Shown here: piece by piece, positions 24,530 through 56,701 of the stretch
How the letters are laid out: each line of letters starts with the position of its first letter
How positions within the stretch are numbered: position 1 is the stretch's first letter
Assembly: GCA_000004985.1 (NCBI GenBank)
Contig: GG738855.1
Strand: one strand, 5' to 3'
DNA length: 64,000 nucleotides
Source of the DNA: Naegleria gruberi
Lineage: Eukaryota
Notes under the pieces: model-generated
Seen by the model: the letters and a program-made list of their open reading frames with translations, nothing else
Database searches by the model: none
What the model was told of the DNA's origin: nothing
Made by a program: the position numbers and the translations under genes

Positions 24530-24781
24530 TGAGGAAAGGAAGAATCGCGTCAGAAATGAGTCGTACTCTTCATACACTTTATTTTCCCACCATGCAAATT
24601 CCCACAAGATAGAGTTTCATATTCCATCGTGCACTAGAACAACCTCAACCGCCTTAACATCTCGTTTGAATCAACCCTCAAAAAAAATACCTCAATTGGC
24701 TCTCGGATTGAGTATACACATACAGTGAATAGCAACACTAACGAACACCAATAAGGTGAAAATCAAAAGCAACAGTAAGAA

Positions 24782-35481: not shown

Positions 35482-36216
35482 ATGATCAACTCGGAACAAA
35501 GAAAGAAGTTTATAATATTTGATATGGGAGGTGTGCTCATCTCCACCGATTTTAACAATTGTATCAAGACAATTTACAATGAGAACAAGGAAGCATTTGG
35601 GTCGGTAACTGTTGATGACTTGCTGGACTTGTTGAAAAAACAATTTGGCCAATACAAGATCGGAGCCATCACAGAAGACGAATTTTGGGGCGTATTCTTT
35701 GAAAAGTATTTTAATGGTAGAAACTTTACATTGTATGGGAATACACTCACTTTGGAATATTTGAAAGATCAGTTCAGAAAGGATTTTATTATTCCTTTCT
35801 ATAATGGATTGGCTTTGGTGGAGGAAATTCGGGATGCTCAAAAGAAACAATTGACCAATGTATCAATTGGAATTATGAGTAATCACTCCAAAGAGTGGTT
35901 TCCATACTGTACCCAACGTTGGAAATTGGACACAATGTTCACTGAAAAATTATTGCTTGTCAACTCTAGTGATGATGATGTTCAATGTGGAAAACCTAAA
36001 TTGAAAATTATGCTACAACTTATGGCAAGAATTGAACAAGCAGGATACAAGGATGTTCAACCATCAGATATTGCATTTATTGATGATAAGCAAGCCAACG
36101 TTGATGCAACAAATGAATATGGAATGAAAGGTATTTGTTGGCATGGAAAGAAGGTACACTTAGATGTGTTGGTAAATGAATTGAAAAAGCTTGGCTTTTT
36201 GGAATGGAAAAAGTAA
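35482..36216 (+). CDS. HAD-superfamily hydrolase (phosphatase-like)
   Basis: Motif I FIIFDMGGVLIST and motif IV-like IAFIDDKQANVDAT. 244 aa. Confidence 0.6.
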   Translation: MINSEQRKKFIIFDMGGVLISTDFNNCIKTIYNENKEAFGSVTVDDLLDLLKKQFGQYKIGAITEDEFWGVFFEKYFNGRNFTLYGNTLTLEYLKDQFRKDFIIPFYNGLALVEEIRDAQKKQLTNVSIGIMSNHSKEWFPYCTQRWKLDTMFTEKLLLVNSSDDDVQCGKPKLKIMLQLMARIEQAGYKDVQPSDIAFIDDKQANVDATNEYGMKGICWHGKKVHLDVLVNELKKLGFLEWKK

Positions 36217-36218
36217 AT

Positions 36219-39200
36219 TTACTTCTTTTTGGCTTTCTTTGACTTTCCAGTCTTCTTGGCATTCTTTCTCTTCTTTGATTTAGGTTCCTCTTCCTCTGGT
36301 TCTTCCTCAGAGTATTCTTCAATATCATCATGTTCTTCCTCAGAGCACTCTTCAATATCATCTTCGTCTATTTCTTTCTTTTGAGATTTTTGAGAGAAAA
36401 GAACTGGTGAGCTAGGGGTTGGTGAACGGTCTGTCTTCTTCTTTTTTGAGGTCTTCTTTTTCTTTGGGGAACCCTTCTTATTAGAGAGACCTTGTTTTAA
36501 ATTTCTCAATTCCTCATCAATATTTTCCAATTCACCCTGAATTTCTTCAATTTCGCTCTTGTGTTTTTCAATAGTTTCTTCCTTTTGCTGTTCAGTTTGG
36601 GCATATTCTCCCTTCTCGAAAGCAATTGTTTCTCTGAGTACTTTCTTATACTCTTCAACCTTCTTCTTCTTTTCTAGCAGTAGTTTGACTTCAGGATTTT
36701 CGCTGAGTGGAGTTTGACCAAAACGGAAAACTGGTGGACCTGTAGCCTTAGAACCAGCATATACGATACCAGTTGCTTCAATTCTCTCTCCATCAAGTGT
36801 TAGAATCAATGGGACTGCTAAATTAATTTCCAGTCTCTTTTTTCTGAATGCCAAACCAGTAAGGAATGTTTCAAAAACTAAACTACTACCTAATAAATTC
36901 CAAAATGCATGTCTAATCATTTCTCGTCTAATGTCTATTTCTATCAGATTTACAGAATAGCCAACAAATCCATCTGCGTCAATTGGATCCAATCTCAATC
37001 TACCTTCATTATCCATACCTTTTGAACATTTCTGGATATTATCGAGGGGTAAAACTGGTATCTTGTGAGGGAAATTTTCTAGGAGTCGTCTCACTTTTTC
37101 CATACCATTAGAATCTTGTACAACAATACATTGCATCTTATCTCCCAAGAACCTAGAAATTGTGTCATTGTGCTTTTCATTATCTATATAACCTAGCTCT
37201 CCAAGAATTCCCACAATTCCACTATCTGTTTCCTTTTGGAGTTGTTTTACTTTCTGCAAGGCCTTGTTTTCCGCAAGGCCAACATTGCACTCTTTTTGTT
37301 TTCTACTGTTCTGTGTCTTGATCTCTAACTTCTTTTTAAGAATATTCAATAGTTTGTCAGCATTTTCCATATTTGGCATATCATTTTCGAAGTTCAATTC
37401 ATATTCTTTGATTGTTTTCAGTATATCATTCATTGTGGATCTGAAATTACTAAGCTTGAATTCATTCTCTTGGTGATTTTGCTCGGCTTTCTTAATTTCC
37501 TTCTTCAGATAATCTAGTTCACTGAGACAATTTTGTTTCTTCTCTTGGAGTTCCTTCTCAATTTGTTGAATAGCACTGTTATCAGTAAATCCAAATTCTA
37601 ACTCTTTTGGTGGAAGATTTTTAGTTGTAAAAACTAGCTTATACAAACCAGTTTCACCTGATCCCTCCTTTATGCTAACTCTTGAAAACTTGGCACGACC
37701 ATTCTCAAATTTAGCTACTAAATCCCCTTCTAGCTCAGGAAGTTCACTGTCCATGCTATCTTCTGTTGGTTGAATGGAAAGAGTGACCTTTTTAATTTTA
37801 TCATCGGCAATCACAGTATTGGAATACTTGTCTATCACTTTGAGTGAAAGTTCTTCCCAGAATGATCTTGCATCAATATTTTCTCCCATATTGGTAACTA
37901 CAGGAAGCTGGAATTTATCATTTTCTATTTCCAAAGCTTCCGGATCTCCAGGGGAGACAGCAATATCTAGAGTAGTGTTTATACTCCCATTCAGTCCAAG
38001 AATTGGAACATATGGCAATGAAGAAATGTCCAAAGTAAATCTATATCTGTAAACTCCGGATTTAGTAAATTCTTTTTCACTATTTGCGAATGTATATGTT
38101 AAACTCTTGGAAGCAGATGGGCATGATATGAATTGCCTTTTATCTCCTCCTTGAGGGTTTGCTACTTCCATAATGATTGAATTTGGAGCCTTAACAGGTT
38201 TTCCACTTTCTCCCAAAACTACAACTTCAAAAGGGTCTAAAAAGTCTCCCACCACAAGATTTGTTGTCTTATTGGTAACCTTGAGTTCTGCTGGATGGGA
38301 GCTCTTGATAATATTTACAATAAAGCAAGTCTTGTTTGCCTTTGTTAACTCGTATTCAATCCAGAAAGTATGTCTTCCCTCTGTACCTTTAACCCAAAAT
38401 TGTGGCATATAGGCTCTTCCATTTTCAATTTGTAAATCGATGGACTGATTGACTTCTCCTTGATATTGGATAATTTCAATATCAGTCTCTGGAGGTTCAA
38501 TCTCAAAGTTTCCATGTTGATGTATTACGTTACCAAACTTATCGTGTGTTGTAATGTAAAATGATGGAGTAAGATTATAATTTTCAACATCGAATACTAC
38601 CTCTCCTATCATGTCATTAACTCTCAAAGACACTGGTGGTCCTGGTTCAAGGAGAATATTTTCAATTTTACCCTCTTTGATTTTACCTCCCTTGTCAATA
38701 ATCTTCAAATGGAATTCTCCAGAAGGGCCTATCAAGCTTACATCATTATATTTAAAAAATTTAAAGTGTTCATGGTCATCCAATCCTGTTAGGAGTCGTA
38801 GTTTGTCGAAATCACAAATTTCAATACTTTCTGCTTCACCATTCAATTGAGAAACTATTTCAATTGAAGGTTCAATATTCTCAAGTTCTGGATAATTTTC
38901 ATTACTCTCGTTATCCATCCTATTTCCAAATGCATCCATAATACTGAACTTAACACTGAACTTTTGTTCACATTTAAGTTTTTCAGGTATTGACTTTCTC
39001 TCTATTTTAAATATGCATGGAGGCCCTGTTATGACACGTAAATTAATGGTAAAGTTTGCTATTATCATATCTGTGTCAATATCATCATCGTTCTGTACGG
39101 AATCTCCTGCTGCTTTGGAGAGTATATCGACAAAATATTTAGTAGTTTTAAAAATTTGTGGAACTACTAGAGTTGGTAATTCGCAAATACCTTTTTTAAC

Positions 39201-42200
39201 TTCTAAAAGATTGGCTTTACACCATGAAGCTCTGGCGTATGCATCAATCTCTATCCTTTCGTACATTTCATTGCATAATTCCAAATTCCATCCAACTAGT
39301 TCTGAACTGACTATTGCATTCACTGTTACTTTAAGTGCAGATCTCTCCTTGATCATATTCTTTTCCTCAGTGGTTCTAGTTAGGAGGTTAAATGAAGAAG
39401 GTTTTGCAACTGAAGCTGATTCAATAGTAAGTGGAACATCAATGCAAATATCTTGGTAACTTAGTGTTATATATGCCTCTTTTCGTTGAGAACTACTTTG
39501 AGAGCTTCCTATAGCTATATTTTTGAATTGGAAATAACCAGTTTCAGTATTAAAGGTACCAGAAGCTTCTTCTTTCAAACATTCTCCTTTTACGGTTATG
39601 GTGAGAGGGGTAAAGTCATCTTCACCATCATAAAAACATGGAATGTAGATTTGATTATTTTTCTCATCCAGTAATTTGGCCTCAATATCTGGTAGAATTT
39701 TCTTTACAGAGTTTCCTGACAAGGCAGTAGCTGCATCTTCAGAAAGTTGAATAGTGTGAACGGCTCCAGCAAATATCACCATATCAATTTCAAGAGGTTG
39801 CATAATTAGACCAAATGCTATCACTAATTTTGTTTTTACAAACTTGTTGGAACCTAATGGAGCACTTTTAACAACAAGCTCAGTAATTTCTATTTGATTG
39901 CTATTGTTGAAGGAGGCCTTAAATGAGGATAGTTCTACGGTATCATCAGTTGTTGTAATTTTAAGTTCTTCCGTAATGTTACAAGTTGTCTCTTTGAAAG
40001 GAACAACATTACCATACGTGTCTTGTTGTTCAATGATTAGTGTGGGGAATGGTTTGTCAATAAAGGTTAAAAGGGAATCCTTGAGTTGACTCTTATCTAA
40101 AAGAGATTTGGCACCTTTAACTTTTGGTAAATTGTTGGAAAGTGACAGAGTGGATGGCGCCGCAGCAGTTACATCAATTTTTACCACCTTTGCTTTGATT
40201 CCACTGTCCTCAGAAGAGGATAATTCCAAAATATAAGTACCCACAGATGTAAATTCTGGCTTCAGCTTGTAAGGCTTGAAGCAATGCACTCCTTTTTTAA
40301 AAGCCTTTGTTGAAGTGAGTGACTCATTAAGTTTTTGTTCTTCTTCATTATCACCTTCATAGGTTATGGTCAAAGTAACTGGGTAGAGTTGGTTTGTCAC
40401 AACCTTGTGATCTCCTGTCATTATACAAGCCGACAGGTATTTGAGAGAATATCCAGCTGTAACAGCGTCAGGTGGTGGTCTTCTCTCTCTTGCAGTAACA
40501 TTTGGTGTATCTACAACATCTATATAGCTCGGTAGCTTATTTTTCATTTTGCTGACTTCAGCTTTAAACTCTTGCTTGGTGAGAAGGTTTTGTACTTTTG
40601 ATATTGGAAAGCACTGTCCATTCTTTGAATCATCTGACTCCTTTTCAGGTGACCATTCCTTAACTACAATAGTTACAGAGTATTCTTCTGATGACATGTC
40701 CCTAAACATATCAACAAGAGTTCCAATAATTTTAGGTCTAGTTTTCATGACTAGATAATCTCCAATGGAATAATTTGTTTGTCCGTATTTGATCTTTTTG
40801 TAGAATGTTTTCATACCCTTTCCTTCTTTTTGAGTTCTTTCGAAATCACATTCGTCAAAAATTATTTCTTCATCTAATTTTTTGTGGCATTCCTTAATCC
40901 ATTTTCTATACCTCTGTGTCAAGTTTCTTTCGCTGTAATTTAAAAGTGCTTGACAGAGTGCTGTTTGTTTGCAAAGGTACATTTTGTTGGCCGATACTTC
41001 AAAATTAGAATCAAAAAAGAGCATTCCCTTAATTCTTCTATAGCAATTTTCTGGAATATCCCTATTACTTCTTTCCTTCTCCATAAAAGGTAAATTTTTG
41101 ATTTTTTCATTAGCTAACAGTCTACCATTCCAAAAGCATTCAAATCCAGGATTTCTTTCGCTCAGAGGTACTTCTTGGTCAGTAGGAATATATTTTCCTC
41201 CTTCCAAATATAATTCTTCTGGTATTGGAAGAGTTTCTCTTCCTTGTTTGAAAGGATAGTAATAAATTATTCCTCTCACTGTGCTATTAATTATCGACAC
41301 TCCATATTGGGATGATGTTGGCAGGGTCATTTCAGGCGCGTTCAAATTTTCTCCATTTTTGACACTGAGTTTGATTTCAAAAGTGAACGGTGACTTTCCC
41401 TCCTGAAGATATAATGTTTCCATGTCCTTGTCTTCATTCGATATGGCTGTGCCATCTACTTTCATTATGACATTTTTAGGTTGCTTTAATTGCCATAAAT
41501 CGTCTTCATCAATTGAGGGCATCTTTGTTTTCTTTTGAGACTTGATTGGTGGCATTTCTTCCTCCTCTCCTTCGGAAAGATCATCAATATCACTCATGTT
41601 ATCATTTTCATCAGGATCTTCAATAATATCTCTTCCTTCCTTATTACCATCAGTTCCATGTATATAATAGTGATAGATGTGGCCTAAACGCTTCTTGATA
41701 ATTGCTGGATCATATCTATCGACATAGACCTTCTTAATGTCCGAAATTGTAAAGTGAGTAAAGCTTTCCCATTGTTTTTCTGTATCAGTTGGAGGTCTAG
41801 AAATACAATTGGCTTTCCATTGTTTGTCTTTTCCTGAAGTAAAATCTTGCTCCAACTTTTGCCTTGAAAGGGAAACTTCATAAACAAATCTTGAATCTTT
41901 TGGTTTTGAGACAAGAGTGACTTCATCTCCCAAGTTGAAAATGGCCTTCTTGGAACCTACACCATACCTGGAAAAGTCTGACGTAACAAATTTATCAAAA
42001 AACCTTCTGCGGAGTGGTGCCTTTTCTCTTGTTGGCAACTTGGAATCATCAACTGGGGCTTCAGTAATACCAAGAGTAGCCCAATTGACTAAGGTTTTAA
42101 AATTCATTCCTCTTCCATTATCCCAAATATGGAGCTTGCTTGTAAGTTCATTACTCTGTGTAGGCTTTTCAAATCGAATTTCGATAAGCCTTTCATTCTT

Positions 42201-43037
42201 GTTGAGGACAGTGTTTTGAATAGAATTGTCCAAAATTTCAGCAAGAGCGGTAATGAAGTCATATTCATCTCCTCCGTGAATTAAAATATTTACATGAGGT
42301 ACAATATCTACAGTCAATTGTAAATTAGCCTTAACTTTAGAAGATGATTCAGAAGTATTTTGGCCATTTTTCAATGTCAATATAAAACACCCATGACTCG
42401 AAGTGGGTGGTAAGTTTCTTGTCGAATGAGCACTTTGATTAATGTCGTCTAATATGATAACTTCGTTGGTGTTTGCCTTAGATTTTCCAATTTGAGATGC
42501 ATCTAAATCGGCATCCTTTACATCCTTATCATCCAAATTTCTAATAGATTCAATTTCATTCACAGATTTTAATTTAAAAATCTCACAAATGTAATGTTTC
42601 AATTGATTCACACTTGAAATTTTAGATTTAGGCCCAACAAGTTTTGTTTTTCCAGTGTGGGCATCCACAATCTTGTACATTGTTGGATCTGAATTTTCTT
42701 CGATTTTTGCAGTTGTCTCATCGTTTAATTTGGTTTTTTTTCTTGATGGTTCTATTTCTTTCTTAATTTTAGTTTCTGTCACTGTTGGTGGTTGACTTGC
42801 AAGTTTTGTTGGTTGTGATGATGATTTTGTTGTTTCTTCCGATTCCGATATTTCTTCATATTCGTCAATAATATTACTATCATCTTGGTCTTCCAAATAT
42901 TTACTACTGTTATTGGAGGTACTCTTGTAACCATTTTCCTCATCGTTCTCTGAGGAGGTTCTCTTTTTAGATTTCTTTGCCGTTGTTGATGAAGAATTTT
43001 TGCTGTTCGTCTTTTTGCTTGATGACTTTGGAGGCAT
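36219..43037 (-). CDS. SMCHD1-like giant protein (2272 aa from ATG): N-terminal GHKL/MORC-type ATPase and C-terminal SMC hinge domain, with an acidic/basic low-complexity tail
   Basis: GHKL N-box and G1 box (LAEILDNSIQNTV … LHIWDNGRGMNFKTL). The C-terminal SMC hinge consensus GIVGILGELGYIDNEKHNDTISRFLGDKMQCIVVQDSNGMEKVRRLL…LTLDGERIEATGIVYAGS is preceded by a coiled coil. Single uninterrupted ORF; ATG at 43037 (MPPKSSSKK). Confidence 0.75.
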   Translation of the reverse strand: MPPKSSSKKTNSKNSSSTTAKKSKKRTSSENDEENGYKSTSNNSSKYLEDQDDSNIIDEYEEISESEETTKSSSQPTKLASQPPTVTETKIKKEIEPSRKKTKLNDETTAKIEENSDPTMYKIVDAHTGKTKLVGPKSKISSVNQLKHYICEIFKLKSVNEIESIRNLDDKDVKDADLDASQIGKSKANTNEVIILDDINQSAHSTRNLPPTSSHGCFILTLKNGQNTSESSSKVKANLQLTVDIVPHVNILIHGGDEYDFITALAEILDNSIQNTVLNKNERLIEIRFEKPTQSNELTSKLHIWDNGRGMNFKTLVNWATLGITEAPVDDSKLPTREKAPLRRRFFDKFVTSDFSRYGVGSKKAIFNLGDEVTLVSKPKDSRFVYEVSLSRQKLEQDFTSGKDKQWKANCISRPPTDTEKQWESFTHFTISDIKKVYVDRYDPAIIKKRLGHIYHYYIHGTDGNKEGRDIIEDPDENDNMSDIDDLSEGEEEEMPPIKSQKKTKMPSIDEDDLWQLKQPKNVIMKVDGTAISNEDKDMETLYLQEGKSPFTFEIKLSVKNGENLNAPEMTLPTSSQYGVSIINSTVRGIIYYYPFKQGRETLPIPEELYLEGGKYIPTDQEVPLSERNPGFECFWNGRLLANEKIKNLPFMEKERSNRDIPENCYRRIKGMLFFDSNFEVSANKMYLCKQTALCQALLNYSERNLTQRYRKWIKECHKKLDEEIIFDECDFERTQKEGKGMKTFYKKIKYGQTNYSIGDYLVMKTRPKIIGTLVDMFRDMSSEEYSVTIVVKEWSPEKESDDSKNGQCFPISKVQNLLTKQEFKAEVSKMKNKLPSYIDVVDTPNVTARERRPPPDAVTAGYSLKYLSACIMTGDHKVVTNQLYPVTLTITYEGDNEEEQKLNESLTSTKAFKKGVHCFKPYKLKPEFTSVGTYILELSSSEDSGIKAKVVKIDVTAAAPSTLSLSNNLPKVKGAKSLLDKSQLKDSLLTFIDKPFPTLIIEQQDTYGNVVPFKETTCNITEELKITTTDDTVELSSFKASFNNSNQIEITELVVKSAPLGSNKFVKTKLVIAFGLIMQPLEIDMVIFAGAVHTIQLSEDAATALSGNSVKKILPDIEAKLLDEKNNQIYIPCFYDGEDDFTPLTITVKGECLKEEASGTFNTETGYFQFKNIAIGSSQSSSQRKEAYITLSYQDICIDVPLTIESASVAKPSSFNLLTRTTEEKNMIKERSALKVTVNAIVSSELVGWNLELCNEMYERIEIDAYARASWCKANLLEVKKGICELPTLVVPQIFKTTKYFVDILSKAAGDSVQNDDDIDTDMIIANFTINLRVITGPPCIFKIERKSIPEKLKCEQKFSVKFSIMDAFGNRMDNESNENYPELENIEPSIEIVSQLNGEAESIEICDFDKLRLLTGLDDHEHFKFFKYNDVSLIGPSGEFHLKIIDKGGKIKEGKIENILLEPGPPVSLRVNDMIGEVVFDVENYNLTPSFYITTHDKFGNVIHQHGNFEIEPPETDIEIIQYQGEVNQSIDLQIENGRAYMPQFWVKGTEGRHTFWIEYELTKANKTCFIVNIIKSSHPAELKVTNKTTNLVVGDFLDPFEVVVLGESGKPVKAPNSIIMEVANPQGGDKRQFISCPSASKSLTYTFANSEKEFTKSGVYRYRFTLDISSLPYVPILGLNGSINTTLDIAVSPGDPEALEIENDKFQLPVVTNMGENIDARSFWEELSLKVIDKYSNTVIADDKIKKVTLSIQPTEDSMDSELPELEGDLVAKFENGRAKFSRVSIKEGSGETGLYKLVFTTKNLPPKELEFGFTDNSAIQQIEKELQEKKQNCLSELDYLKKEIKKAEQNHQENEFKLSNFRSTMNDILKTIKEYELNFENDMPNMENADKLLNILKKKLEIKTQNSRKQKECNVGLAENKALQKVKQLQKETDSGIVGILGELGYIDNEKHNDTISRFLGDKMQCIVVQDSNGMEKVRRLLENFPHKIPVLPLDNIQKCSKGMDNEGRLRLDPIDADGFVGYSVNLIEIDIRREMIRHAFWNLLGSSLVFETFLTGLAFRKKRLEINLAVPLILTLDGERIEATGIVYAGSKATGPPVFRFGQTPLSENPEVKLLLEKKKKVEEYKKVLRETIAFEKGEYAQTEQQKEETIEKHKSEIEEIQGELENIDEELRNLKQGLSNKKGSPKKKKTSKKKKTDRSPTPSSPVLFSQKSQKKEIDEDDIEECSEEEHDDIEEYSEEEPEEEEPKSKKRKNAKKTGKSKKAKKK

Positions 43038-43142
43038 TTTATTCTTGTGTTTGTTGGAATACCAACGAGAAATATTTTGGCGCCAAATCTTTAAAGATAA
43101 AAATACAGATCTCGTAACTAATGCCATGTTATTGGAAACACC

Positions 43143-43928
43143 TTATTCATGTCTTGGTGGTTTTTCCACCACTTTGATTTTTGTAATTTGAATATGATCT
43201 TCCAATGGATAAATATTTTCACATTTGGTTCTAATTTCTGCACCCATTCCACATTTGATTGCCATTTGCTCAACAAATTCCAGAATGTTCATCTTACTAA
43301 TATGTTTGGTTAATACTTGAGCCATGACAGTCCTAATCTTATGAATTTGCGACTTACTGGCATAGGATGTCTTTTTCAATTGCAATTCTGTCATTCTCGT
43401 GCTCACAATCATGGCTATTCTAATCTTGTAACCATCCAAACTCTTAAATTCCTGATTAAGAGTTATGGTTGAGCGACCTTTTCCTATCAATGATGCCAAT
43501 TTATCTTGACTCAATCTAAAACCATTAAACTCTGTTTCTGCATGTTTTCGAAGAGCAACATTATTGATCTTCAATTTTACAATATTATGATTCAATTCTT
43601 CCTTCAAAGATGGAATAATATCAGGAGCTGAAACTTCCACTGTTCGATCAAGAATTTTTTCAAACGTTGGAGTTTGATCCACTTTTTTCTTCACTTTTTT
43701 CTTCAATTTTTTCTGCAAGGCGATAGTGTGTTCTGATTTTGTAATGGGTGTCATTAAAGGAGGATAATCTCCCTCAGTATTGGTGACAGTAGCATATTCA
43801 TTGGTATCTGATTTTTCATAGCTCAGGTATGGTGATTCTATTAGAAAGAATTCTTTTCTATCTTGAAAATATTTTGGCAGACGGTACCTTCTTGGTAACA
43901 TACGTTTGTTCCTTCCGAGTCCTCCCAT
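43143..43928 (-). CDS. Highly divergent ribosomal protein eS1 (S3Ae/RPS3A) family member (262 aa)
   Basis: Collinear, weak but patterned similarity to eS1: MGGLGRNKRM N-terminus (compare MAVGKNKRL), LDGYKIRIAMIVST (compare TDGYLLRLFCVGFT), KTSYASKSQIHKIRTVM (compare KTSYAQHQQVRQIRKKM), ENIYPLED (compare QSIYPLHD). Same length as eS1 (~260 aa). Confidence 0.5.
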   Translation of the reverse strand: MGGLGRNKRMLPRRYRLPKYFQDRKEFFLIESPYLSYEKSDTNEYATVTNTEGDYPPLMTPITKSEHTIALQKKLKKKVKKKVDQTPTFEKILDRTVEVSAPDIIPSLKEELNHNIVKLKINNVALRKHAETEFNGFRLSQDKLASLIGKGRSTITLNQEFKSLDGYKIRIAMIVSTRMTELQLKKTSYASKSQIHKIRTVMAQVLTKHISKMNILEFVEQMAIKCGMGAEIRTKCENIYPLEDHIQITKIKVVEKPPRHE

Positions 43929-44154
43929 TTTTTTGCATGAAATTGAAATATTTATTGAAAATGGATTGATGGCTATTGTTAGTAATTTCACAATTCTGAG
44001 ATTGAAATTCCAAAAAATCTACAAGATTTATTACAAAAAAATGAAATTATAACAATTTTAGCAGGTGATGTGAATAATATGTAATTATTAGTTAATTGTT
44101 TAAATTATTTAATTTTTAAATAATTGGGATTTTTGAATTTTTATTTAAAAAAAA

Positions 44155-45399
44155 ATGATTGAAAACGTTCATTCTCTCGGTTGGCTACTCAAACACAACA
44201 CTCCATTACTGAGTAAAATTTTACTATTTTGCGACTGCAAGACAGTGCTCCACTCAATTCCGTACGTTTGTAAGAGTTGGGCCAATTTAATGTATAATTG
44301 TTTTCCATCGGTTGTGGATTCAATGCACTTGGATTCCGTAGTGGAAAATTCCATCATGATGATGATGACGGATGAAAGTCTTAGTGCCAGTAATCATCAC
44401 CATCAAAAGAATTCTACTACTGATGATGACGATGAAGAAATTAAAAACATTTGGGAACTCCTCTTCTATAGAGATTGTACAACTTGTAGAGGAAAACAGA
44501 ATAGTTTTTGTTCCTTGTTGGAGAAAATTGAATTTAATCAAGTTTTTATTCCCGATGATTATGCTGATGGACATAGGGAGAGGAAGTGTTTTGAAAATTT
44601 GTATAAACACTTGATGAGGGATTGGGTTCTCGAGAATGCCATTAAGCCAAACGATGCACTCAGATCAGTAGCTGCCAATTATTCGGAAATTATTTCAATG
44701 AAGGATAGAGTTTCTCTCTTCCGAGAATTTATTGCAGAACAAGAGGAATATGCAACATTGGATAAACATCTCAAAATTAATGAAGGAGACATTGAAAATC
44801 TCACAAGGGATCTATCTCTTATAGAAGATACTTTTAAATTTACCAAGTTTGTCCAATGTATTGAAGTTGAGGATGAAGACGAGACCATTGTAGAGGATGT
44901 TATTGAGAGGAGGAGTATGCAAGTTGAAGGAAGCTTTTTAAACTGGAATGGAGATATTGTACACATGACTTTCGTATTGGATTTTCCATATAGTGAATTT
45001 AATCCAGAGGCAGATGTGGACATGGATGTATTTTTCAATCTTGGTGACATGATATCATTGGCAGCAGGAGAAGTTAATTTACCAGATTTAAATGTAATTC
45101 TAGGAAAGGACATTGGAGCTGCCTATCCATGGATTTTGGACACTAGTGGTTGTAAAGTTGAGAGCGAGGAAGACATGTTGCATGTCTTGTTGAATAACTA
45201 TTTAATTACCATTCTAATTGGCGCCATTTCAATGCAAGTCATACCAATTAAGGAGTATAATGATTTAACATTTTCAAGAACTGATGACTTGCTATACTTT
45301 TTAAAGTTTGGCACAATAGACATTATGAGTGATTGTATACCTGAAGTGAAACCTCAAGTTGGCACTAATGATTTGATGGATGATTCCTTGAATGATTAG
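44155..45399 (+). CDS. F-box-like domain protein (hypothetical)
   Basis: N-terminal LLSKILLFCDCKTVLHSIPYVCKSWANLM resembles an F-box. 414 aa. Confidence 0.45.
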   Translation: MIENVHSLGWLLKHNTPLLSKILLFCDCKTVLHSIPYVCKSWANLMYNCFPSVVDSMHLDSVVENSIMMMMTDESLSASNHHHQKNSTTDDDDEEIKNIWELLFYRDCTTCRGKQNSFCSLLEKIEFNQVFIPDDYADGHRERKCFENLYKHLMRDWVLENAIKPNDALRSVAANYSEIISMKDRVSLFREFIAEQEEYATLDKHLKINEGDIENLTRDLSLIEDTFKFTKFVQCIEVEDEDETIVEDVIERRSMQVEGSFLNWNGDIVHMTFVLDFPYSEFNPEADVDMDVFFNLGDMISLAAGEVNLPDLNVILGKDIGAAYPWILDTSGCKVESEEDMLHVLLNNYLITILIGAISMQVIPIKEYNDLTFSRTDDLLYFLKFGTIDIMSDCIPEVKPQVGTNDLMDDSLND

Positions 45400-45599: not shown

Positions 45600-46697
45600 A
45601 TGATTGGACAAGCTATCAATTTGACGAATTTATTGGCAGTTGTTGCTGTGGTTTCTTTCGGTTTCCTCTATTCAGAATTTACTGTATCCACATTGAAATA
45701 TGTAACAACCAACAGCTTGAACTATGTATTTGCCTTTCTTCCTCGTGGACAATTCTCCTCCATTGAAAATAGCATCCTTTCTAATGTTCGTTCAATGAAA
45801 TCCATTGCTGAAATCTCTTCCAAGTATGATACTCAATTCGTCCCTTCACAATATACCTTCTCCGTTTGGGCACTCATTTACTTTTCCTTGTCCTTGTTTG
45901 GAATTCTATCCTTACTAACCAATAAGGAAGAAAAGGAAAGGATTGGTCGAAACATTGGCCCATTATTCTTTGTAACAAATTTATTGAATATTGCCTGGAT
46001 GGTTTCATTCAGTTTGGAATATATTTTCCTTTCACACTTGATCATTGTTGGATTGTGGTGGACCTTATTCACACTCTATGCTCGAATCATTGATGTGAGA
46101 TATGGATATACAGTGAGCAAGTATCCTCTCTGGGTCAAATTACCATTCTCAATCTATCTTGCCTGGATATCATGTGCAGCAGTTGCCTCCACAATGATGG
46201 TTCTCAAACACGATATTATGAAACCATTCATTGATTCATTTTCTAATACTGCTGAAAAGGAAAAGATGTTTGTTTATAATTTGGATTTCACCAGTCCAGT
46301 TCTTGCTGTTGTTTCCTTGGTTGGAGTATTGTCAAACATGTTGGATGAGCAACAGTGGGTTGCTGCATTTGTTACCCTTACCTCTGTTATTGGATTATGG
46401 TTCTCAAAGTTTAAGAGAGATTCATTATTCGTGTTGGTTTTGCTTTGGTCATTGGCAGGAATTGTCTTGAAGAATTGGTACAATCCAGATCCACTTGTAA
46501 GGATCGTCTCTCAAGTGAACATGGTCATTATGTTCTTTGAGTTTTTATTCTCATTGTATCATGTGTTGACTCAACCTGGACAAAGATTAATGATGGAACC
46601 AAGTATCATTGAAAAGAGAGATGTTGTTAGTAGCGGTGGTGGTGTATTGGAAATTGACTTTAAGGGAAATCAAAAAGGAAATAAGAAAAGGAAATAA
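45600..46697 (+). CDS. Polytopic membrane protein with TspO/MBR-like motifs, roughly double TspO length
   Basis: VPSQYTFSVWALIYFSL (compare TspO P..W.F..VW..LY), LLNIAWMVSF, and PFSIYLAWISCAAV (compare TspO YPYLAWL). About 10 hydrophobic helices. Confidence 0.35.
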   Translation: MIGQAINLTNLLAVVAVVSFGFLYSEFTVSTLKYVTTNSLNYVFAFLPRGQFSSIENSILSNVRSMKSIAEISSKYDTQFVPSQYTFSVWALIYFSLSLFGILSLLTNKEEKERIGRNIGPLFFVTNLLNIAWMVSFSLEYIFLSHLIIVGLWWTLFTLYARIIDVRYGYTVSKYPLWVKLPFSIYLAWISCAAVASTMMVLKHDIMKPFIDSFSNTAEKEKMFVYNLDFTSPVLAVVSLVGVLSNMLDEQQWVAAFVTLTSVIGLWFSKFKRDSLFVLVLLWSLAGIVLKNWYNPDPLVRIVSQVNMVIMFFEFLFSLYHVLTQPGQRLMMEPSIIEKRDVVSSGGGVLEIDFKGNQKGNKKRK

Positions 46698-46713: not shown

Positions 46714-48501
46714 TTACAGTTCAAAGGTGGTAATTAAAGGTTTGTGGTGTTGGGATTCGGTGCTAGTATTTGTTTCCAACAATTGGAAGTCCAATGTTTT
46801 AACACAAGGGGAAATGAAGACATAGTCGAGGGTAGAAGATTCTTTGGTTTCTTGATCAACAAAGGTTGGTTCAAAGGCAACATTATGATACCATGTTCCT
46901 GAATATGATTCAGATTCACTGGATTCATCTTCATCATTATCTTCATCGTGATGATCTTCAGAGGAGGCAGTCGATTGGCGAGAGTCTGTCTTTTCAAAGA
47001 CCATCAAGGAAGCAGATAATTGTTTTTGACATGGAATAATTAAGCTTTCTCTATCGTATGGTGTTGGGAAATCATCAGAGTCAGAGTCACTATCAATAGG
47101 TTTAGTTTGGTCATCATTATTGTGAGCACCAAGGTCAGTTCCAGTAACCAGAATACTCAGAGCATTTGATTTTGGTAAACTGTTAAAATTACCAACAGTA
47201 ATGGTTGGTGTAATTGTTGTCTTGTTTGTAATTGAATTGTAATTTGACATTTTACCAACAATTTCTTGTCTCATAGAATGAGCAGCATATCTTCTAGCTT
47301 CCACTCCTTGATCCCAATGAGTGTTAAAAACAATAAAGTCCTTGTACTCTTCCTCTGCCTCCTCATCATATGGTTTAAAAACAAAGGCTGCCCAATTACA
47401 GAAACGAGGCACAAGTGAGTCCCAGGATTTAGTACCTGCTTCCTTGTGGTTCTTACTAAACCAATAGACGCCACAATCTACACACTTCAATCTTTCGGAA
47501 TTATAAATTATTGGCAAGTATTCAGTGACAAAGTCATCAGGATCCCTATCTTCGGTTTCTCTATTTCTGACTTCATTCTGTAAAAATCTTGTTATTATAC
47601 TGGTGGTGGAGGTAGATTGAATCATTGGTGTATCTTCGTCTCTTTCCTCACTACTTTCTATAGTTTCGTCAAGTTTACTTGGTTCATAACTATTCTTGTG
47701 TCCACAACAGAACCATTTATAAACTGGTGGCTCATTATCCTCGCTGTCAGTCATGGTTTCTTCATGCTTCATTTCCAAGTGTTCTTCAGCCTTTTTCAAG
47801 CATTTCAATGATTTAATTAATTGTCCATAATTGACATCTTGCAACAAGATTAAATCAGGTGCTTGTTCACCAATCTGTTGAATGGTTGACTTGTTATTAT
47901 CATCATCTTCATCAATGTTTTCTCCTTCAACACTTGATGCACTCCATGAAGCAACAGTAAGCTTTTTCTTTGATGTCTTCCTACTACTCGTTGCCTTTTC
48001 GAATTGTTCATCAAATTGTGCATCAATCAATGATGAAGACATGTGATGATGATGTGAAGAATGTGATTTTTCTAAAATTTCCAACTTGACTTCATGACGT
48101 TCATCCACAACAATAACATTATTAATTGGTGATGATGCTGGAGAAAAGTCTTGCTCATCAACCCATCTCGATGTCACGGCAGACCTTCTTGTATAGAGGG
48201 AGGTATCTGCATTACCTGATGATAATATTGGAATACTATTGGAGGATGAGGAAATAGCAACATTGTTGAGGAGAGAATTTGTTTGTTGTTGTGGTTGTTG
48301 ATCATCAACATTCCGAATAAGATTAAAATTCATCATATTACCGTTATTTTCCAATGGAGAATCGTGTTGTTGCTCCAAAATTGATGATGAGTGAGCTGAA
48401 TCGGTACTGCTCAAACTAGTTGTGCTCTGTGATAAATTCGACTTGTCCTTGCTTGCCTTTCTGCGGTTCTTTTTATTCTTACTGTTCCTCTTTCTGGCCA
48501 T
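46714..48501 (-). CDS. Endonuclease/exonuclease/phosphatase (EEP) family-like protein with a basic N-terminus and acidic low-complexity regions
   Basis: EEP-like motifs LILLQDVN, FIVFNTHWD, VGNFNS, LDYVFIS. The N-terminus MARKRNSKNKKNRRK looks like an NLS. Confidence 0.45.
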   Translation of the reverse strand: MARKRNSKNKKNRRKASKDKSNLSQSTTSLSSTDSAHSSSILEQQHDSPLENNGNMMNFNLIRNVDDQQPQQQTNSLLNNVAISSSSNSIPILSSGNADTSLYTRRSAVTSRWVDEQDFSPASSPINNVIVVDERHEVKLEILEKSHSSHHHHMSSSLIDAQFDEQFEKATSSRKTSKKKLTVASWSASSVEGENIDEDDDNNKSTIQQIGEQAPDLILLQDVNYGQLIKSLKCLKKAEEHLEMKHEETMTDSEDNEPPVYKWFCCGHKNSYEPSKLDETIESSEERDEDTPMIQSTSTTSIITRFLQNEVRNRETEDRDPDDFVTEYLPIIYNSERLKCVDCGVYWFSKNHKEAGTKSWDSLVPRFCNWAAFVFKPYDEEAEEEYKDFIVFNTHWDQGVEARRYAAHSMRQEIVGKMSNYNSITNKTTITPTITVGNFNSLPKSNALSILVTGTDLGAHNNDDQTKPIDSDSDSDDFPTPYDRESLIIPCQKQLSASLMVFEKTDSRQSTASSEDHHDEDNDEDESSESESYSGTWYHNVAFEPTFVDQETKESSTLDYVFISPCVKTLDFQLLETNTSTESQHHKPLITTFEL

Positions 48502-51928: not shown

Positions 51929-54289
51929 TTAAAGGAAGAATGGGTTATTACGAAGTTTTGTTGATGGGTATTCTTGTGTCAAGTCAACTGATTCAATTGA
52001 TTTTTTGGCGTAGAGTAAACATGCTGGCATTCTTACAGAACCATTCCAATTATAGTAGAGATGTGTTTGTCTGAAAGTAATTTTGATAATCTCATCAACT
52101 GAGAACATGGTATTGTTGAACAAAACTTGGTATCTGACTGGTTTGCTGTATCCAATATTACTATTAATAAAGCACGAGTTCATGTAAAATTCTTGAGTTT
52201 GGTATCTTGACATACTGGTAACAACAGTACCAATTGGTGGATTCTGATTATCCATATTAAATCTGGCATTAGAGTCCTTGTTTACACTAACCAGGCAAAC
52301 TTTGGTATATTCCATTTCAGCTTCAAGACAAAAGTCATGAATAAGTTGAGAAATATCAATACAATCATGTCCACTATTGTACAAAATCAAAGCACTAGGC
52401 ATTCCTCCACTGTTTCTATTACGAAAAGCTTGCAAGGCCTCCTTAATACTTGACAATAACTTGTTACGAATGTTTGTTTCATCACTCTCTCTGAAGGGAA
52501 CTGTATAATACAGAGTAGTACTAGTATTTAGTGAGAGTGAAATGGAGCCTTTAAAGTTTCTTCCCTTTCTCTGAATATCAATACCACAAACTGATACAAA
52601 CTCTTGATAGGATCTTTCGACAGACCAAATAAGACCACCAATCTTGGCTGACATTTGTATCAAACAATTAGGAAGTCTCTTAAACCAATCTCCATTACAA
52701 ACAATACATTGTGAAGGAATACCAACAGTACAATTGTAAAACTGTTTCAATGCACTGTAAATATGCTTATTTTCATTAGCCATGAGGAAAAAGACATAGT
52801 CCAGGTCATTCCAATTTTTGTAACCTTCAATATCATGCATAAAATCTCTACCACGATCATCCAAATCAAATACAAGAGGCTTTCCCAAATCGTACCTTCT
52901 AATGGCATCCATAAATCCTTTAACAAGGAATTGTGGTGATACAAGCGCCCAATTTTTTCCTTGCAAACTGTTAATGACAGTATCCATAGAAACAGTCCAT
53001 TTGTCATTTTTCATGCCTTCAATTCCAGAGACTTGTGGTTGTGGAACAACAGTAAAGCTAGTTTCAAGTGCTCTGTCGATTTGCAATCCAACCGAATCAA
53101 GGAATTGTCTTGACTCTCCACTATTCATTTTGTTAGAAATTCTGGTTATGTAGTCTTCCTTTTGTGTAACTGATTTCTTTGGAATTTTCCTCAAATCCTT
53201 CTTGTTAATACCAGAAATGTAACAAAGTTCTGGAATCAGATAGTTAACTTGTTTTTTCTGATTTCTCATCTTGACCATAACACAAATCAAAGGCTGATTC
53301 TTATCTCTAACATTGATATTGTATCTTTCCTTATAGTATTCAAAGTAAGGAACATCTTTTCCATCTTTTTTAAAGGTCGATGAAGGTGTTTGGTTGAAAT
53401 CAATATCCTTAATGACAAATGATCTATTATTGTAGACGATACTGAGACCCTTATATCTTTCTGCTATGGATAAATAGTTATCTCTTTGCATATCATTCTT
53501 CAAATCTTCAATCATGGAATATCTGCTAGTGATCTTTTGTTTGAATGTTAAGGAGAGACACAAACCACTTCCAAGGAAGGCTAAAGCAGGAATAACACCA
53601 TCTCTCACAGAGTATCTATCAACGATAGCGCCTTCTTTTTCAACTTCAGCAAATCCCAATCTATCCATCTTTAAGTATTTAAAAACCTTGGTCAGACAAA
53701 ATGAAATAGCCTGTTCTAATCTAGTATCTTGAATATTATTGTTAATGGAAACTTCAGTCTTTCCTTCAATTTTCACTAAGAATGGAATCTTGACACCATT
53801 CTTTTCGTATGGCATAACAATTTCTAAGGATGGAACCTTCTCAACAGAAACAATTAATGAGCCATCAAACATTGGCAATCCAGGAATTTGTGAGGTCCAA
53901 TTATAAGTCTTTTTTATCATGAAAAACAACTTGAATTTGAATGGAACTATATTCAACATGGATTCAGCCCATCTCTTACTTTCTTCTGGAATTTCAGCCC
54001 ATTCGGTTGTTTTGGATGCACAAGTCACAGAAAATGATGATAATTCGAAAATTCTATTCGGAAGCATTCTGATTGGAAAGAAGTTTGTTTTAATTCTATC
54101 GGATGATGTTCTTTGCCCTCCGTGGCCTCCTTGATAGCCTCCTCCACGACCACCAAAGCCTCCATGTCCTCCTTGATAACCTCCTCCACGGTGGTGACCA
54201 CCACCCTGGTGATGTGATGGTCTTCCAGAGTTGTCCTCCTTGAAACGTTTGTTATAGTCTTGATTTCCTTCGAAGCCTCTCTTGCTCAT
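51929..54289 (-). CDS. Argonaute/PIWI-family protein with an N-terminal RGG/GGH-repeat region
   Basis: RGG box (GGGHHRGGGYQGGHGGFGGRGGGYQGG). PAZ-like YLIPELCYISG. PIWI motifs (VCGIDIQRKG; ALILYNSGHD; SVRMPACLLYAKKS, compare SIPAPAYYAHLVA). ATG at 54289; the track start is TTG. Confidence 0.85.
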   Translation of the reverse strand: MSKRGFEGNQDYNKRFKEDNSGRPSHHQGGGHHRGGGYQGGHGGFGGRGGGYQGGHGGQRTSSDRIKTNFFPIRMLPNRIFELSSFSVTCASKTTEWAEIPEESKRWAESMLNIVPFKFKLFFMIKKTYNWTSQIPGLPMFDGSLIVSVEKVPSLEIVMPYEKNGVKIPFLVKIEGKTEVSINNNIQDTRLEQAISFCLTKVFKYLKMDRLGFAEVEKEGAIVDRYSVRDGVIPALAFLGSGLCLSLTFKQKITSRYSMIEDLKNDMQRDNYLSIAERYKGLSIVYNNRSFVIKDIDFNQTPSSTFKKDGKDVPYFEYYKERYNINVRDKNQPLICVMVKMRNQKKQVNYLIPELCYISGINKKDLRKIPKKSVTQKEDYITRISNKMNSGESRQFLDSVGLQIDRALETSFTVVPQPQVSGIEGMKNDKWTVSMDTVINSLQGKNWALVSPQFLVKGFMDAIRRYDLGKPLVFDLDDRGRDFMHDIEGYKNWNDLDYVFFLMANENKHIYSALKQFYNCTVGIPSQCIVCNGDWFKRLPNCLIQMSAKIGGLIWSVERSYQEFVSVCGIDIQRKGRNFKGSISLSLNTSTTLYYTVPFRESDETNIRNKLLSSIKEALQAFRNRNSGGMPSALILYNSGHDCIDISQLIHDFCLEAEMEYTKVCLVSVNKDSNARFNMDNQNPPIGTVVTSMSRYQTQEFYMNSCFINSNIGYSKPVRYQVLFNNTMFSVDEIIKITFRQTHLYYNWNGSVRMPACLLYAKKSIESVDLTQEYPSTKLRNNPFFL

Positions 54290-54789
54290 TTCGTGTGTGG
54301 CTTTGTGATTTGTGTTGGTCGAAGGAAAAACTGGCAATATGTTGTTTGCTTATTTTTTTGATTAACTGAAGAGAAATTGAATGATTGAAAAAGGCTGGAA
54401 AGTTTGTTCAAAATATTTGTTTCTAAACAAAAGGCTTCTTGTTCAAAGTCAAGAAATTATGTTTAACTCAAATCTCAAACATGATACATCAGCTGGAGTA
54501 CAGTTTATAGTGATTAATTAAAGCTGGCATTTAGTGAGGTATCTCAACAATTATTCATTATTGTAAAGAAAGCTAAAAACATAAAAGTATCTCCCATTGA
54601 TGATGGGTTACAATTACCTTGTTGTTAAAAGTTCAGATCTTCCAAACACTTTCAAAGTATTCTTTCAGATGAATGATTCTTCCAACATGAGCACAACCCA
54701 TTAAATAAGTTGAGAGAATTCATGAGACCTTCATGATTTTATCTTTCTGGGTTCAATTCACAACATGGGAGAATTATTTTGCTTTTATC

Positions 54790-56505: not shown

Positions 56506-56655
56506 CATTATTAATTTGGAAAGTTGGCTGTTTTATTCAAATATGGAAACTGGATAGCTCTTCACCACACATTGATAAGGAGATATCCAGCAACACCCAC
56601 ACAATTTAGTGATAATATTCAACTCTACTGTTTCCCTATACACTCACAACACATC

Positions 56656-56662
56656 TATAAAA
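56656..56662 (+). promoter_or_regulatory. Candidate TATA box (TATAAAA) about 40 bp upstream of the RCC1-gene ATG
   Basis: The only canonical TATAAAA in the 197-bp spacer, at a typical distance from the first ATG (56702). Confidence 0.3.
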
Positions 56663-56701
56663 ATTGGCTCTACAAAACAAACAGATATCACAACCCAGGG
56701 A

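Follow-up and report, generated by a model that had tools for sequence, protein, structure and literature searches.

The best-studied relative of the protein described here is mouse SMCHD1, a chromatin-silencing protein that forms a homodimer held together through its hinge. Its EM particles are rod-like, the E147A mutation abolishes ATPase activity and G1872A/G1875A/G1876A abolishes hinge dimerisation (Brideau et al., 2015; PMC4628070). BAH homology was reported as weak in the same study. Iyer et al. (2008; PMC2292703) described the fusion of a GHKL ATPase to an SMC hinge as a eukaryotic lineage of ancient origin. MORC ATPases undergo ATP-dependent head dimerisation and have a role in chromatin compaction (PMC5651269, PMC2292703).

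Among the genes in the window (the whole 64,000-nucleotide stretch of Naegleria gruberi DNA that was analysed) is one whose product we consider very probably (probability roughly 0.88) to be a full-length SMCHD1 orthologue, the plant counterpart being GMI1, that works as an ATP-driven chromatin clamp dimerised through its hinge. As such, it would be a non-canonical SMC-family chromatin protein.

Gene model and domain architecture

The longest mechanical ORF at the locus (36219..43127, minus strand) has 2302 amino acids. The N-termini of orthologues favour the ATG at 43037 (Willaertia “MPVKSSTKKAKK” versus “MPPKSSSKKTNSK”), from which an uninterrupted frame gives a 2272-amino-acid product plus stop. 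This product matches the NCBI “predicted protein [Naegleria gruberi]” of length 2272 with 100% identity and 100% coverage, and the public gene model therefore consists of this one exon. The 6.8-kb intron-less ORF proposed in the initial annotation was thus confirmed, and the gene is single-copy and single-exon in N. gruberi. The features, with the evidence for each, are as follows.

36219..43037, minus strand: complete single-exon coding sequence of the very probable SMCHD1 orthologue, 2272 codons plus a TAA stop at 36219-36221 (ORF list, translation)
42633..43037, minus strand: K/S/E-rich low-complexity N-terminal extension, residues 1-135 (sequence itself)
42318..42632, minus strand: putative N-terminal equivalent of the SMCHD1 ubiquitin-like (UBL) domain, residues ~136-240 (hhalign)
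41628..42305, minus strand: GHKL (Bergerat-fold) ATPase domain, residues 245-470 (Pfam, mouse structure match, alignment)
40863..41429, minus strand: SMCHD1-type ribosomal-S5-domain-2-like transducer, residues 537-725 (Pfam SMCHD1_S5)
40461..40820, minus strand: small beta-rich domain after S5, residues 740-859 (AF2 model, collinear alignment)
37593..40460, minus strand: array of ~8 Ig-like beta-sandwich domains, residues 860-1815 (hhalign, AF2, Foldseek, Pfam)
37233..37577, minus strand: coiled-coil or helical arm into the hinge, residues 1821-1935 (AF2 helix, heptad-rich sequence)
36708..37232, minus strand: SMC hinge domain, residues 1936-2110 (Pfam SMC_hinge, PDB matches, hhalign)
36483..36695, minus strand: predicted helical or coiled-coil segment C-terminal to the hinge, residues 2115-2185 (sequence)
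36222..36482, minus strand: highly charged K/S/E-rich low-complexity tail (KKKKTSKKKKTDRSP...PKSKKRKNAKKTGKSKKAKKK), residues 2186-2272 (sequence)
51929..54337, minus strand: Argonaute with PAZ and Piwi domains, 8.9 kb from the SMCHD1 ATG

The N-terminal extension contains the basic NLS-like runs KKSKKR and SRKKTKL and has similar counterparts in the Naegleria and Willaertia orthologues; it may direct the protein to the nucleus. In SMCHD1, a UBL domain precedes the ATPase (as in 6mw7). The 105 residues upstream of the Naegleria GHKL domain were aligned by hhalign between Discoba and Metazoa (Prob 92.7%, E=4.2e-7, 92 columns) and between Discoba and Amoebozoa (Prob 94.7%, E=6e-8). With smaller sequence groups the probability for this region was only 17%, and the phmmer alignment to 6mw7 begins downstream of it.

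The GHKL domain was detected by Pfam HATPase_c_3 (residues 259-394, E=5.9e-10) and its boxes are intact: the N box (E267, D270, N271), the G1 box (D306-N-G-R-G-M311) and the G2 box (G359-V-G-S-K363). In a 14-sequence alignment of Discoba and vertebrates, E267/D270/N271, DNGRGM and YGVGSK form invariant columns. Among solved structures, the ATPase module of mouse SMCHD1, 6mw7, matches best (E=5.5e-36); in it, the position of the E147A substitution, mouse E147, aligns with the Naegleria catalytic Glu E267. A second block aligned to 6mw7 corresponds to the S5 transducer region, which also matches the full Pfam SMCHD1_S5 model (1-168/168) at residues 537-720 (E=6.2e-45), preceded by an acidic disordered insert (residues 471-536). 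The GHKL head named in the initial annotation is well supported by these matches, and in profile searches GHKL, SMCHD1_S5 and the SMC hinge follow one another from N to C as expected. The motif strings quoted in that annotation all occur in the translation (ILDNSIQNT at 268-276, IWDNGRGM at 304-311), as do its hinge strings (1940-2096) and its charged, K/E-rich tail (~2190-2272).

The AF2 model of the small beta-rich domain has strands at model residues 4-80 and a helix at 82-94, with pLDDT of about 75-88. This domain aligns collinearly with its vertebrate counterpart, occupying the place of the weak BAH-like region in mouse SMCHD1. Along the Ig-like array that follows, PGPP...DxxGN motifs recur (D1006, D1124, D1368, D1499 and D1736). 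Independently realigned Discoba and vertebrate SMCHD1 middle regions matched over 928 collinear columns (hhalign Prob 99.9%, E=2.5e-37), with off-register repeat matches besides. The AF2 model of the middle is all-beta (pLDDT 80.6) and then continues into a long helix; the Foldseek matches to this model in the PDB are multi-Ig arrays, including NUP210 (E=3e-21), alpha-2-macroglobulins and Robo2. Precomputed Pfam annotation assigns Ig_SMCHD1_8th to the Naegleria protein, the only one of the vertebrate-derived Ig_SMCHD1 models to match it; the 6th matches Willaertia faintly. The suggestion of an Ig-like, beta-rich middle therefore holds, but the stretch that the initial annotation left unassigned is about 1200 residues (726-1938) rather than ~1,600, because the S5 domain (537-725) is part of the ATPase module.

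The long AF2 helix (model residues 1082-1139, protein residues 1821-1878) leads into the hinge, which was identified by Pfam SMC_hinge (residues 1939-2062, E=1.6e-8) and by matches to the hinges of Thermotoga maritima SMC (1gxl, 1.6e-9), DMS3 (6e-6) and mouse SMCHD1 (6n64, 4.8e-5). Against the vertebrate SMCHD1 hinge, hhalign gave Prob 99.1% and E=4.4e-19. The predicted C-terminal SMC hinge is therefore present. It scores higher against the bacterial SMC hinge than against that of mouse SMCHD1, and the hinge of SMCHD1 itself is likewise closer to the bacterial one (Brideau et al., 2015; PMC4628070). Two of the hinge-interface glycines (mouse G1872/G1875/G1876) are kept as G2090 and G2095, with A2094 in place of the middle Gly, which N. 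lovaniensis and N. fowleri retain. R2085 is conserved and aligns with mouse R1867, which we take to be the nucleic-acid-binding Arg of the hinge. Residues 2115-2185 align to the coiled-coil flanks of the Bacillus subtilis Smc hinge construct 5h69, so a coiled coil probably continues downstream of the hinge. The charged tail, comparable to that of the Willaertia orthologue, may serve as an NLS or a non-specific nucleic-acid binder.

Possible mechanism and role

By analogy with mouse and human SMCHD1, two chains would dimerise stably via the C-terminal hinge, with the Ig-like arrays forming the two rod-like arms of the dimer. The N-terminal GHKL and S5 heads would dimerise upon ATP binding and hydrolyse ATP with E267. 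In such an ATP-gated clamp, R2085 of the hinge may bind nucleic acid together with the basic tails, and chromatin may be held or compacted. On the same analogy, hinge homodimerisation, ATP hydrolysis and chromatin association are predicted for the Naegleria protein. Its targets are likely to be repeats, heterochromatin or DNA breaks.

LRIF1 is the vertebrate recruiter of SMCHD1. [quoted passage not shown] Passages in the literature are in keeping with such a role, as Arabidopsis GMI1 is cited in PMC5651269 as involved in somatic homologous recombination, and PMC4004971 includes the statement that SMCHD1 accumulates at damage sites. However, nothing in the sequence favours repair over silencing or the reverse, and the two roles do not exclude each other; we regard a primary repair role as possible, at rather less than even odds. 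It is unlikely, in our estimate, that Naegleria SMCHD1 keeps an ancestral function, such as repeat silencing linked to RNAi or DNA methylation, that would depend on neither LRIF1 nor X inactivation. If it does, N. gruberi or the gene-bearing dictyostelids would offer a simple system for studying the original role of SMCHD1.

A still weaker addition to the idea of an ancestral silencing function is a functional link in N. gruberi between SMCHD1 and the Argonaute that lies on its strand at a distance of 8.9 kb. The two could form an RNAi-guided chromatin-silencing module like MORC6/DMS3 in plant RNA-directed DNA methylation, and the match of the hinge to DMS3 fits this idea. Five ORFs separate the genes, however (ribosomal protein S3Ae and four without a Pfam match). 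In N. lovaniensis and Willaertia the neighbours of the SMCHD1 orthologue are entirely different, with no Piwi or PAZ gene within 10 kb. Gene order in eukaryotes seldom indicates function, and we consider the link very unlikely. The initial annotation had called the proximity (~9 kb) suggestive but not evidence of linkage, and this caution was justified: the proximity is real and is not conserved in these two relatives.

Family membership and distribution

From the N-terminus, a putative UBL-like domain is followed by GHKL, the S5 transducer, the small beta domain and ~8 Ig-like domains; a coiled coil then leads to the SMC hinge, after which come a predicted coiled coil and the basic tail. The proposal of a full-length SMCHD1-like protein in a protist is thus upheld, in that a collinear orthologue exists in N. 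gruberi and is identical to a public protein of this species. An exhaustive homologue search recovered 313 cluster representatives. The same four-part order was found in 70 of the 96 long homologues, including those from other heteroloboseans, diplonemids, dictyostelids, Protostelium, Volvox (the only archaeplastid SMCHD1-type member seen), a mollusc and vertebrates. In the NJ tree, which follows taxonomy, Metazoa, Amoebozoa, Heterolobosea and diplonemids were each recovered at 100% bootstrap. Several protist homologues are already named SMCHD1 or SMC-hinge by automatic annotation. The novelty initially attached to a protist orthologue was overstated, as the architecture is widespread in Amoebozoa, diplonemids and Volvox and the fusion was described in 2008 (PMC2292703). 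N. gruberi SMCHD1 is an ordinary conserved gene, another member of a recognised family whose protist relatives are common and known to databases.

Two other identities were rejected. The protein is not a MORC sensu stricto, given that it has a hinge, that no MORC structure was matched at E<=1 in a PDB search and that no MORC-specific or CW domain was found by Pfam. Nor is it a canonical SMC, as the match is confined to the hinge, which lies at the C-terminus, and the head is of the GHKL type. A MORC-family paralogue that independently gained an SMC hinge, and so is no true SMCHD1 orthologue, might be proposed, because GHKL and S5 modules are common to MORCs, MORCs have been reported in heteroloboseans (PMC2292703) and the hinge is slightly closer to bacterial SMC hinges than to that of mouse SMCHD1. 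Yet the S5 domain matches an SMCHD1-specific model, no MORC structure was matched and the same architecture spans supergroups. Moreover, convergence would not place between head and hinge a ~1000-residue Ig array collinear with vertebrate SMCHD1. This origin is highly improbable and already largely refuted.

Horizontal transfer from an animal or other eukaryote, or assembly contamination, is hardly credible: although SMCHD1 is best known in vertebrates and all the named non-Discoba matches of the first search were vertebrate, the GC of the gene (0.345-0.359) is that of its flanks and the remainder of the window and so gives no hint of foreign origin, ordinary Naegleria genes flank it at 105 bp and 2 bp, identity falls from 64% (N. 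lovaniensis) and 62% (N. fowleri) to 44% (Willaertia) and only about 26% (vertebrates), and Naegleria is not nested in Metazoa or Amoebozoa in the tree.

Comparison with known systems

MORC ATPases (MORC1-4 and plant MORCs) have the GHKL and S5 module in common with the Naegleria protein (PMC5651269, PMC2292703), but have neither the SMC hinge nor the Ig array, the place of which is taken by CW or coiled-coil domains. Canonical SMCs and plant DMS3 have a homologous hinge fold and dimerisation glycines. In canonical SMCs, however, the heads are of the Walker A/B ABC type, the arms are long antiparallel coiled coils, the hinge lies centrally and kleisins serve as partners, whereas the Naegleria protein combines a GHKL head and Ig-like arms with a hinge at the C-terminus; DMS3, unlike the Naegleria protein, has no ATPase. 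Arabidopsis GMI1, compared by description, likewise has a GHKL ATPase module and a C-terminal SMC hinge (PMC5651269) and is likewise a member of the “ancient lineage” that Iyer et al. described (2008; PMC2292703); its reported role is in DNA repair and recombination.

Vertebrate SMCHD1 (mouse and human; 6mw7 for the ATPase module, 6n64 for the hinge) is alike in domain order from GHKL through the hinge, probably also in the preceding UBL-like region and the post-hinge coiled coil, and is of similar length (about 2005 versus 2272 amino acids in Naegleria). Identity is about 21% in the full-length alignment and about 26% in the best local match, which covers a quarter of the protein. Both proteins keep the catalytic Glu and the G1 and G2 boxes. 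In the hinge, the Arg (mouse R1867) and two of the three interface glycines are common to both, whereas the middle Gly is replaced by Ala in N. gruberi. The Naegleria protein additionally has the 135-residue low-complexity N-terminus, the acidic insert that separates GHKL from S5 and the long K/S/E-rich C-terminal tail. As X inactivation is, so far as we know, absent from Naegleria, the biology of the vertebrate protein must differ from that of its Naegleria counterpart.

Domain architecture and conserved residues

The protein of N. gruberi (Heterolobosea, Discoba; 2272 aa) is a true SMCHD1 orthologue over its full length and keeps close to the family plan. The initial annotation had read it as a full-length SMCHD1 orthologue in a unicellular eukaryote, and its domains, functional residues and collinear middle region bear this out. 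Profile searches with the translated ORF returned three Pfam matches, in this order from the N- to the C-terminus:

residues 259-394: HATPase_c_3, E = 5.9e-10
residues 537-720: SMCHD1_S5, E = 6.2e-45, with the whole model covered (1-168 of 168)
residues 1939-2062: SMC_hinge, E = 1.6e-8

Among solved structures, the best match was the mouse SMCHD1 ATPase module (6mw7, E = 5.5e-36), aligned in two blocks spanning GHKL and S5, and no MORC structure was matched at E ≤ 1. The proposed GHKL ATPase head is supported by both Pfam and structure matches. The same is true of the C-terminal SMC hinge, which was also recovered when the Discoba-type and vertebrate hinge profiles were compared with hhalign (Prob 99.1%, E = 4.4e-19). 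Searched alone, the hinge matched those of Thermotoga SMC (1gxl, E = 1.6e-9), Bacillus Smc (5h69, E = 1.8e-6), plant DMS3 (E = 6e-6) and mouse SMCHD1 (6n64, E = 4.8e-5). The higher scores against bacterial hinges are no anomaly, because the SMCHD1 hinge is itself phylogenetically nearest to prokaryotic SMC hinges (Brideau et al., 2015, PMC4628070).

We compared functional residues in an alignment of 14 sequences (nine Discoba-type and five vertebrate SMCHD1). The N box (E267, D270 and N271), the G1 box (D306-N-G-R-G-M311) and the G2 box (G359-V-G-S-K363) are invariant. The hinge glycines G2090 and G2095 are the counterparts of mouse G1872 and G1876, and the middle position (mouse G1875) is occupied by Ala in N. 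gruberi and by Gly in both N. lovaniensis and N. fowleri. The hinge residue R2085 lines up with mouse R1867, which has a role in nucleic-acid binding. E267 lies opposite an Ala in the 6mw7 chain, which we take to be the E147A mutant; rodent SMCHD1 in the 14-sequence alignment has Glu there. In mouse SMCHD1, E147A abolished ATPase activity (Brideau et al., 2015, PMC4628070).

About 1,600 residues between head and hinge were initially described as unassigned and probably Ig-like. An unassigned middle does exist, but it is shorter than that, since S5 is part of the ATPase module. Residues 760-1830 and their homologous counterparts were excised, each group (Discoba-type, vertebrate) was realigned on its own, and hhalign was used to compare the resulting profiles. 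The two aligned collinearly throughout, over 928 columns (Prob 99.9%, E = 2.5e-37). Several off-register alignments (Prob 86-97%) are the mark of internal repeats, and recurring PGPP...DxxGN motifs (at D1006, D1124, D1368, D1499 and D1736) delimit about eight repeat units.

AlphaFold2 without an alignment gave an unusable model of residues 740-1900 (pLDDT 32), and MAFFT aligned the eight internal Ig repeats too poorly for use as a window-only MSA. With a 20-sequence alignment pLDDT rose to 80.6, and the model runs from a small beta domain through unbroken beta-sandwich units to a 58-residue helix (protein residues 1821-1878). Foldseek matched this model to multi-Ig arrays in the PDB, best to NUP210 of the human (E = 3e-21) and Dictyostelium (E = 8e-21) nuclear pores, followed by ciliary central-apparatus proteins, alpha-2-macroglobulins, complement proteins and Robo2. 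TM-scores were low because relative domain orientations are arbitrary, and the likeness extends to fold and repeat type but no further. PF26199, named Ig_SMCHD1_8th, is among the precomputed Pfam entries for the protein. The Ig-like middle proposed in the initial annotation is therefore correct. A convergent fusion of a MORC protein with a hinge was rejected, given the lack of a MORC structure among the matches, the strength of the SMCHD1_S5 match and the collinear Ig array.

Over the approximately 105 residues preceding GHKL, the Discoba profile aligned with that of Metazoa (hhalign Prob 92.7%, E = 4e-7) and with that of Amoebozoa (Prob 94.7%); with a smaller sequence sample, Prob was only 17%. 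A UBL-equivalent domain ahead of GHKL is therefore likely, though unproven. Both ends of the protein (residues 1-135 and about 2186-2272) are of low complexity and rich in lysine, and resemble tails for nuclear localisation or non-specific nucleic-acid binding.

Gene model and genomic neighbourhood

The gene and its neighbours in the window are as follows:

22298-25921: F-box pair
35482-36216, plus strand: HAD-family hydrolase ORF, convergent with the SMCHD1-like ORF
36219-43127, minus strand: long ORF, 2302 codons
36219-43037, minus strand: SMCHD1-like coding sequence from the initially annotated start, 2272 codons plus stop
43143-43991, minus strand: ribosomal protein S3Ae gene, upstream and on the same strand
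44155-45399, plus strand: ORF, no Pfam match at E ≤ 1e-3
45600-46697, plus strand: ORF, no Pfam match at E ≤ 1e-3
46714-48501, minus strand: ORF, no Pfam match at E ≤ 1e-3
48847-51351, plus strand: ORF of 834 aa, no Pfam match at E ≤ 1e-3
51929-54337, minus strand: Argonaute gene (PAZ 3e-21, Piwi 8e-35)
55270-56505, plus strand: six-repeat DUF4116 protein, adjoining the RCC1-repeat protein
56609-58129, plus strand: RCC1-repeat protein

The public gene model is the identical single exon: the NCBI/UniRef "predicted protein [Naegleria gruberi]" of 2272 aa, encoded on a 613-kb contig, matches the window product with 100% identity and 100% coverage. Every sequence string quoted in the initial annotation was found in the translation. 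The 30 additional codons from the in-frame ATG at 43127 are probably not used, because the S3Ae stop lies only 15 nt before this ATG, compared with 105 nt for the one at 43037, and the Willaertia orthologue has the same MP(V/P)KSS... start as the 2272-aa product. The 105-bp gap (window 43038-43145) must accommodate the S3Ae terminator/polyA site as well as the SMCHD1-like promoter and 5′ UTR. At the other end, the stops of the HAD-family hydrolase and SMCHD1-like ORFs are 2 bp apart (TAA-AT-TTA, window 36214-36221), so the 3′ UTRs of the two genes must overlap and could be a source of natural antisense RNA.

An Argonaute gene about 9 kb away had been pointed out as suggestive, not as proof of linkage. 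It shares the strand of the SMCHD1-like gene and lies 8.9 kb from that gene's ATG, with five ORFs in between (S3Ae and the four without a Pfam match). In N. lovaniensis and Willaertia magna, the neighbours of the SMCHD1 orthologue are wholly different from those in N. gruberi, and the 10 kb flanking it on each side contain no PAZ or Piwi gene. As synteny is absent in both species, we rejected a linkage, and the proximity is best read as coincidence.

The DUF4116, RCC1-repeat and F-box genes look like typical expanded Naegleria families. Two actin-family genes also occur in the 64-kb window (27218-28930 and 58292-59560, both minus strand). One encodes a canonical actin (422 aa, Actin 2.6e-85). 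The other encodes a 570-aa protein in which the Actin match (4e-44) is confined to the C-terminal 280 residues, making it a divergent actin-related protein or a fusion.

Distribution and descent

Word-indexed homologue searches returned Discoba-type and vertebrate proteins only, and a repeat with the Discoba profile returned the identical 22 proteins because of the word prefilter. The wider distribution comes from an exhaustive phmmer search of residues 240-1439 against 1.84 billion cluster representatives, which gave 313 matches at E ≤ 1e-3 (many of about 2000 aa), 147 at E ≤ 1e-10 and 47 at E ≤ 1e-30. The named clusters include Heterolobosea (N. fowleri, N. lovaniensis, Willaertia), diplonemids (Artemidia, Rhynchopus), Amoebozoa (Polysphondylium, Cavenderia, Heterostelium, Synstelium, Dictyostelium citrinum and Protostelium, the last with two copies), Volvox, the mollusc Bulinus and vertebrates. 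Several homologues carry the UniRef labels "SMCHD1 ribosomal S5 domain-containing protein" or "SMC hinge domain-containing protein." HMMs built for four modules were scanned over the 96 retrieved proteins that are 1500 aa or longer. GHKL, S5, Ig-array and hinge occur in that order in 70 of them, and GHKL, S5 and hinge in a further 11.

In an unrooted neighbour-joining tree without a MORC outgroup (1711 columns, Kimura distance, 200 bootstraps), Metazoa, Amoebozoa, Heterolobosea and diplonemids each had 100% support, and Discoba as a whole had 46%. This fits vertical inheritance, with no hint of horizontal transfer. Transfer or contamination was rejected, as the tree follows the taxa and the GC content across the gene (0.345-0.359) is the same as in the remaining window.

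Some gene models differ. The N. gruberi and Willaertia genes are single-exon, unlike the N. lovaniensis model (PYSW02000044.1, 10001-17181; 7181 bp, 2368-aa product), which does not translate straight through and so holds at least one small intron. On a eukaryotic metagenome contig (ENA ERZ25333236, 3001-10007), the homologue was called as two adjacent genes, one of 1881 aa with GHKL and S5 followed by one of 371 aa with the SMC hinge; this is probably one SMCHD1-like gene split by an intron or the gene caller. A 2155-aa protein of the pseudoscorpion Cordylochernes scorpioides, annotated as a retrotransposon polyprotein ("K02A2.6-like / RNA-directed DNA polymerase"), has an SMCHD1-type S5 match near its C-terminus (1751-1909) and may be a gene-model fusion or transposon insertion.

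Possible role and relation to the known family

SMCHD1 is medically important, with links to FSHD2, Bosma arhinia and X inactivation. The analysis establishes the architecture of the N. gruberi protein and the conservation of its catalytic and interface residues. In its mechanism, the protein may resemble mouse SMCHD1 (PMC4628070). The hinge would hold a stable homodimer together and bind nucleic acid, the Ig-like regions would build rod-like arms about 40 nm long, and the GHKL heads would bind and hydrolyse ATP, probably closing as a clamp. In Naegleria, silencing of repeats or heterochromatin is a plausible role; so is repair of double-strand breaks, as reported for GMI1, and the two are mutually compatible.

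Our literature search found no report treating SMCHD1 together with Naegleria, and nothing specific on SMCHD1 and LECA, SMCHD1 and Ig-like domains, or Naegleria and MORC. Iyer, Abhiman and Aravind (2008, PMC2292703) reported MORCs in heteroloboseans and called the SMCHD1-type lineage ancient. The SMCHD1-type family is widespread in unicellular eukaryotes and its members are picked up by automatic annotation, and the N. gruberi copy is an uncharacterised addition to it. The advance is incremental, given that early notice, the automatic database tags and a Naegleria copy without departures from the family plan. The full multi-domain layout, down to the roughly eight Ig-like domains of the arms, is conserved between Discoba, Amoebozoa and vertebrates, which supports its origin early in eukaryote evolution and means that free-living protists could serve for study of the core SMCHD1 mechanism.
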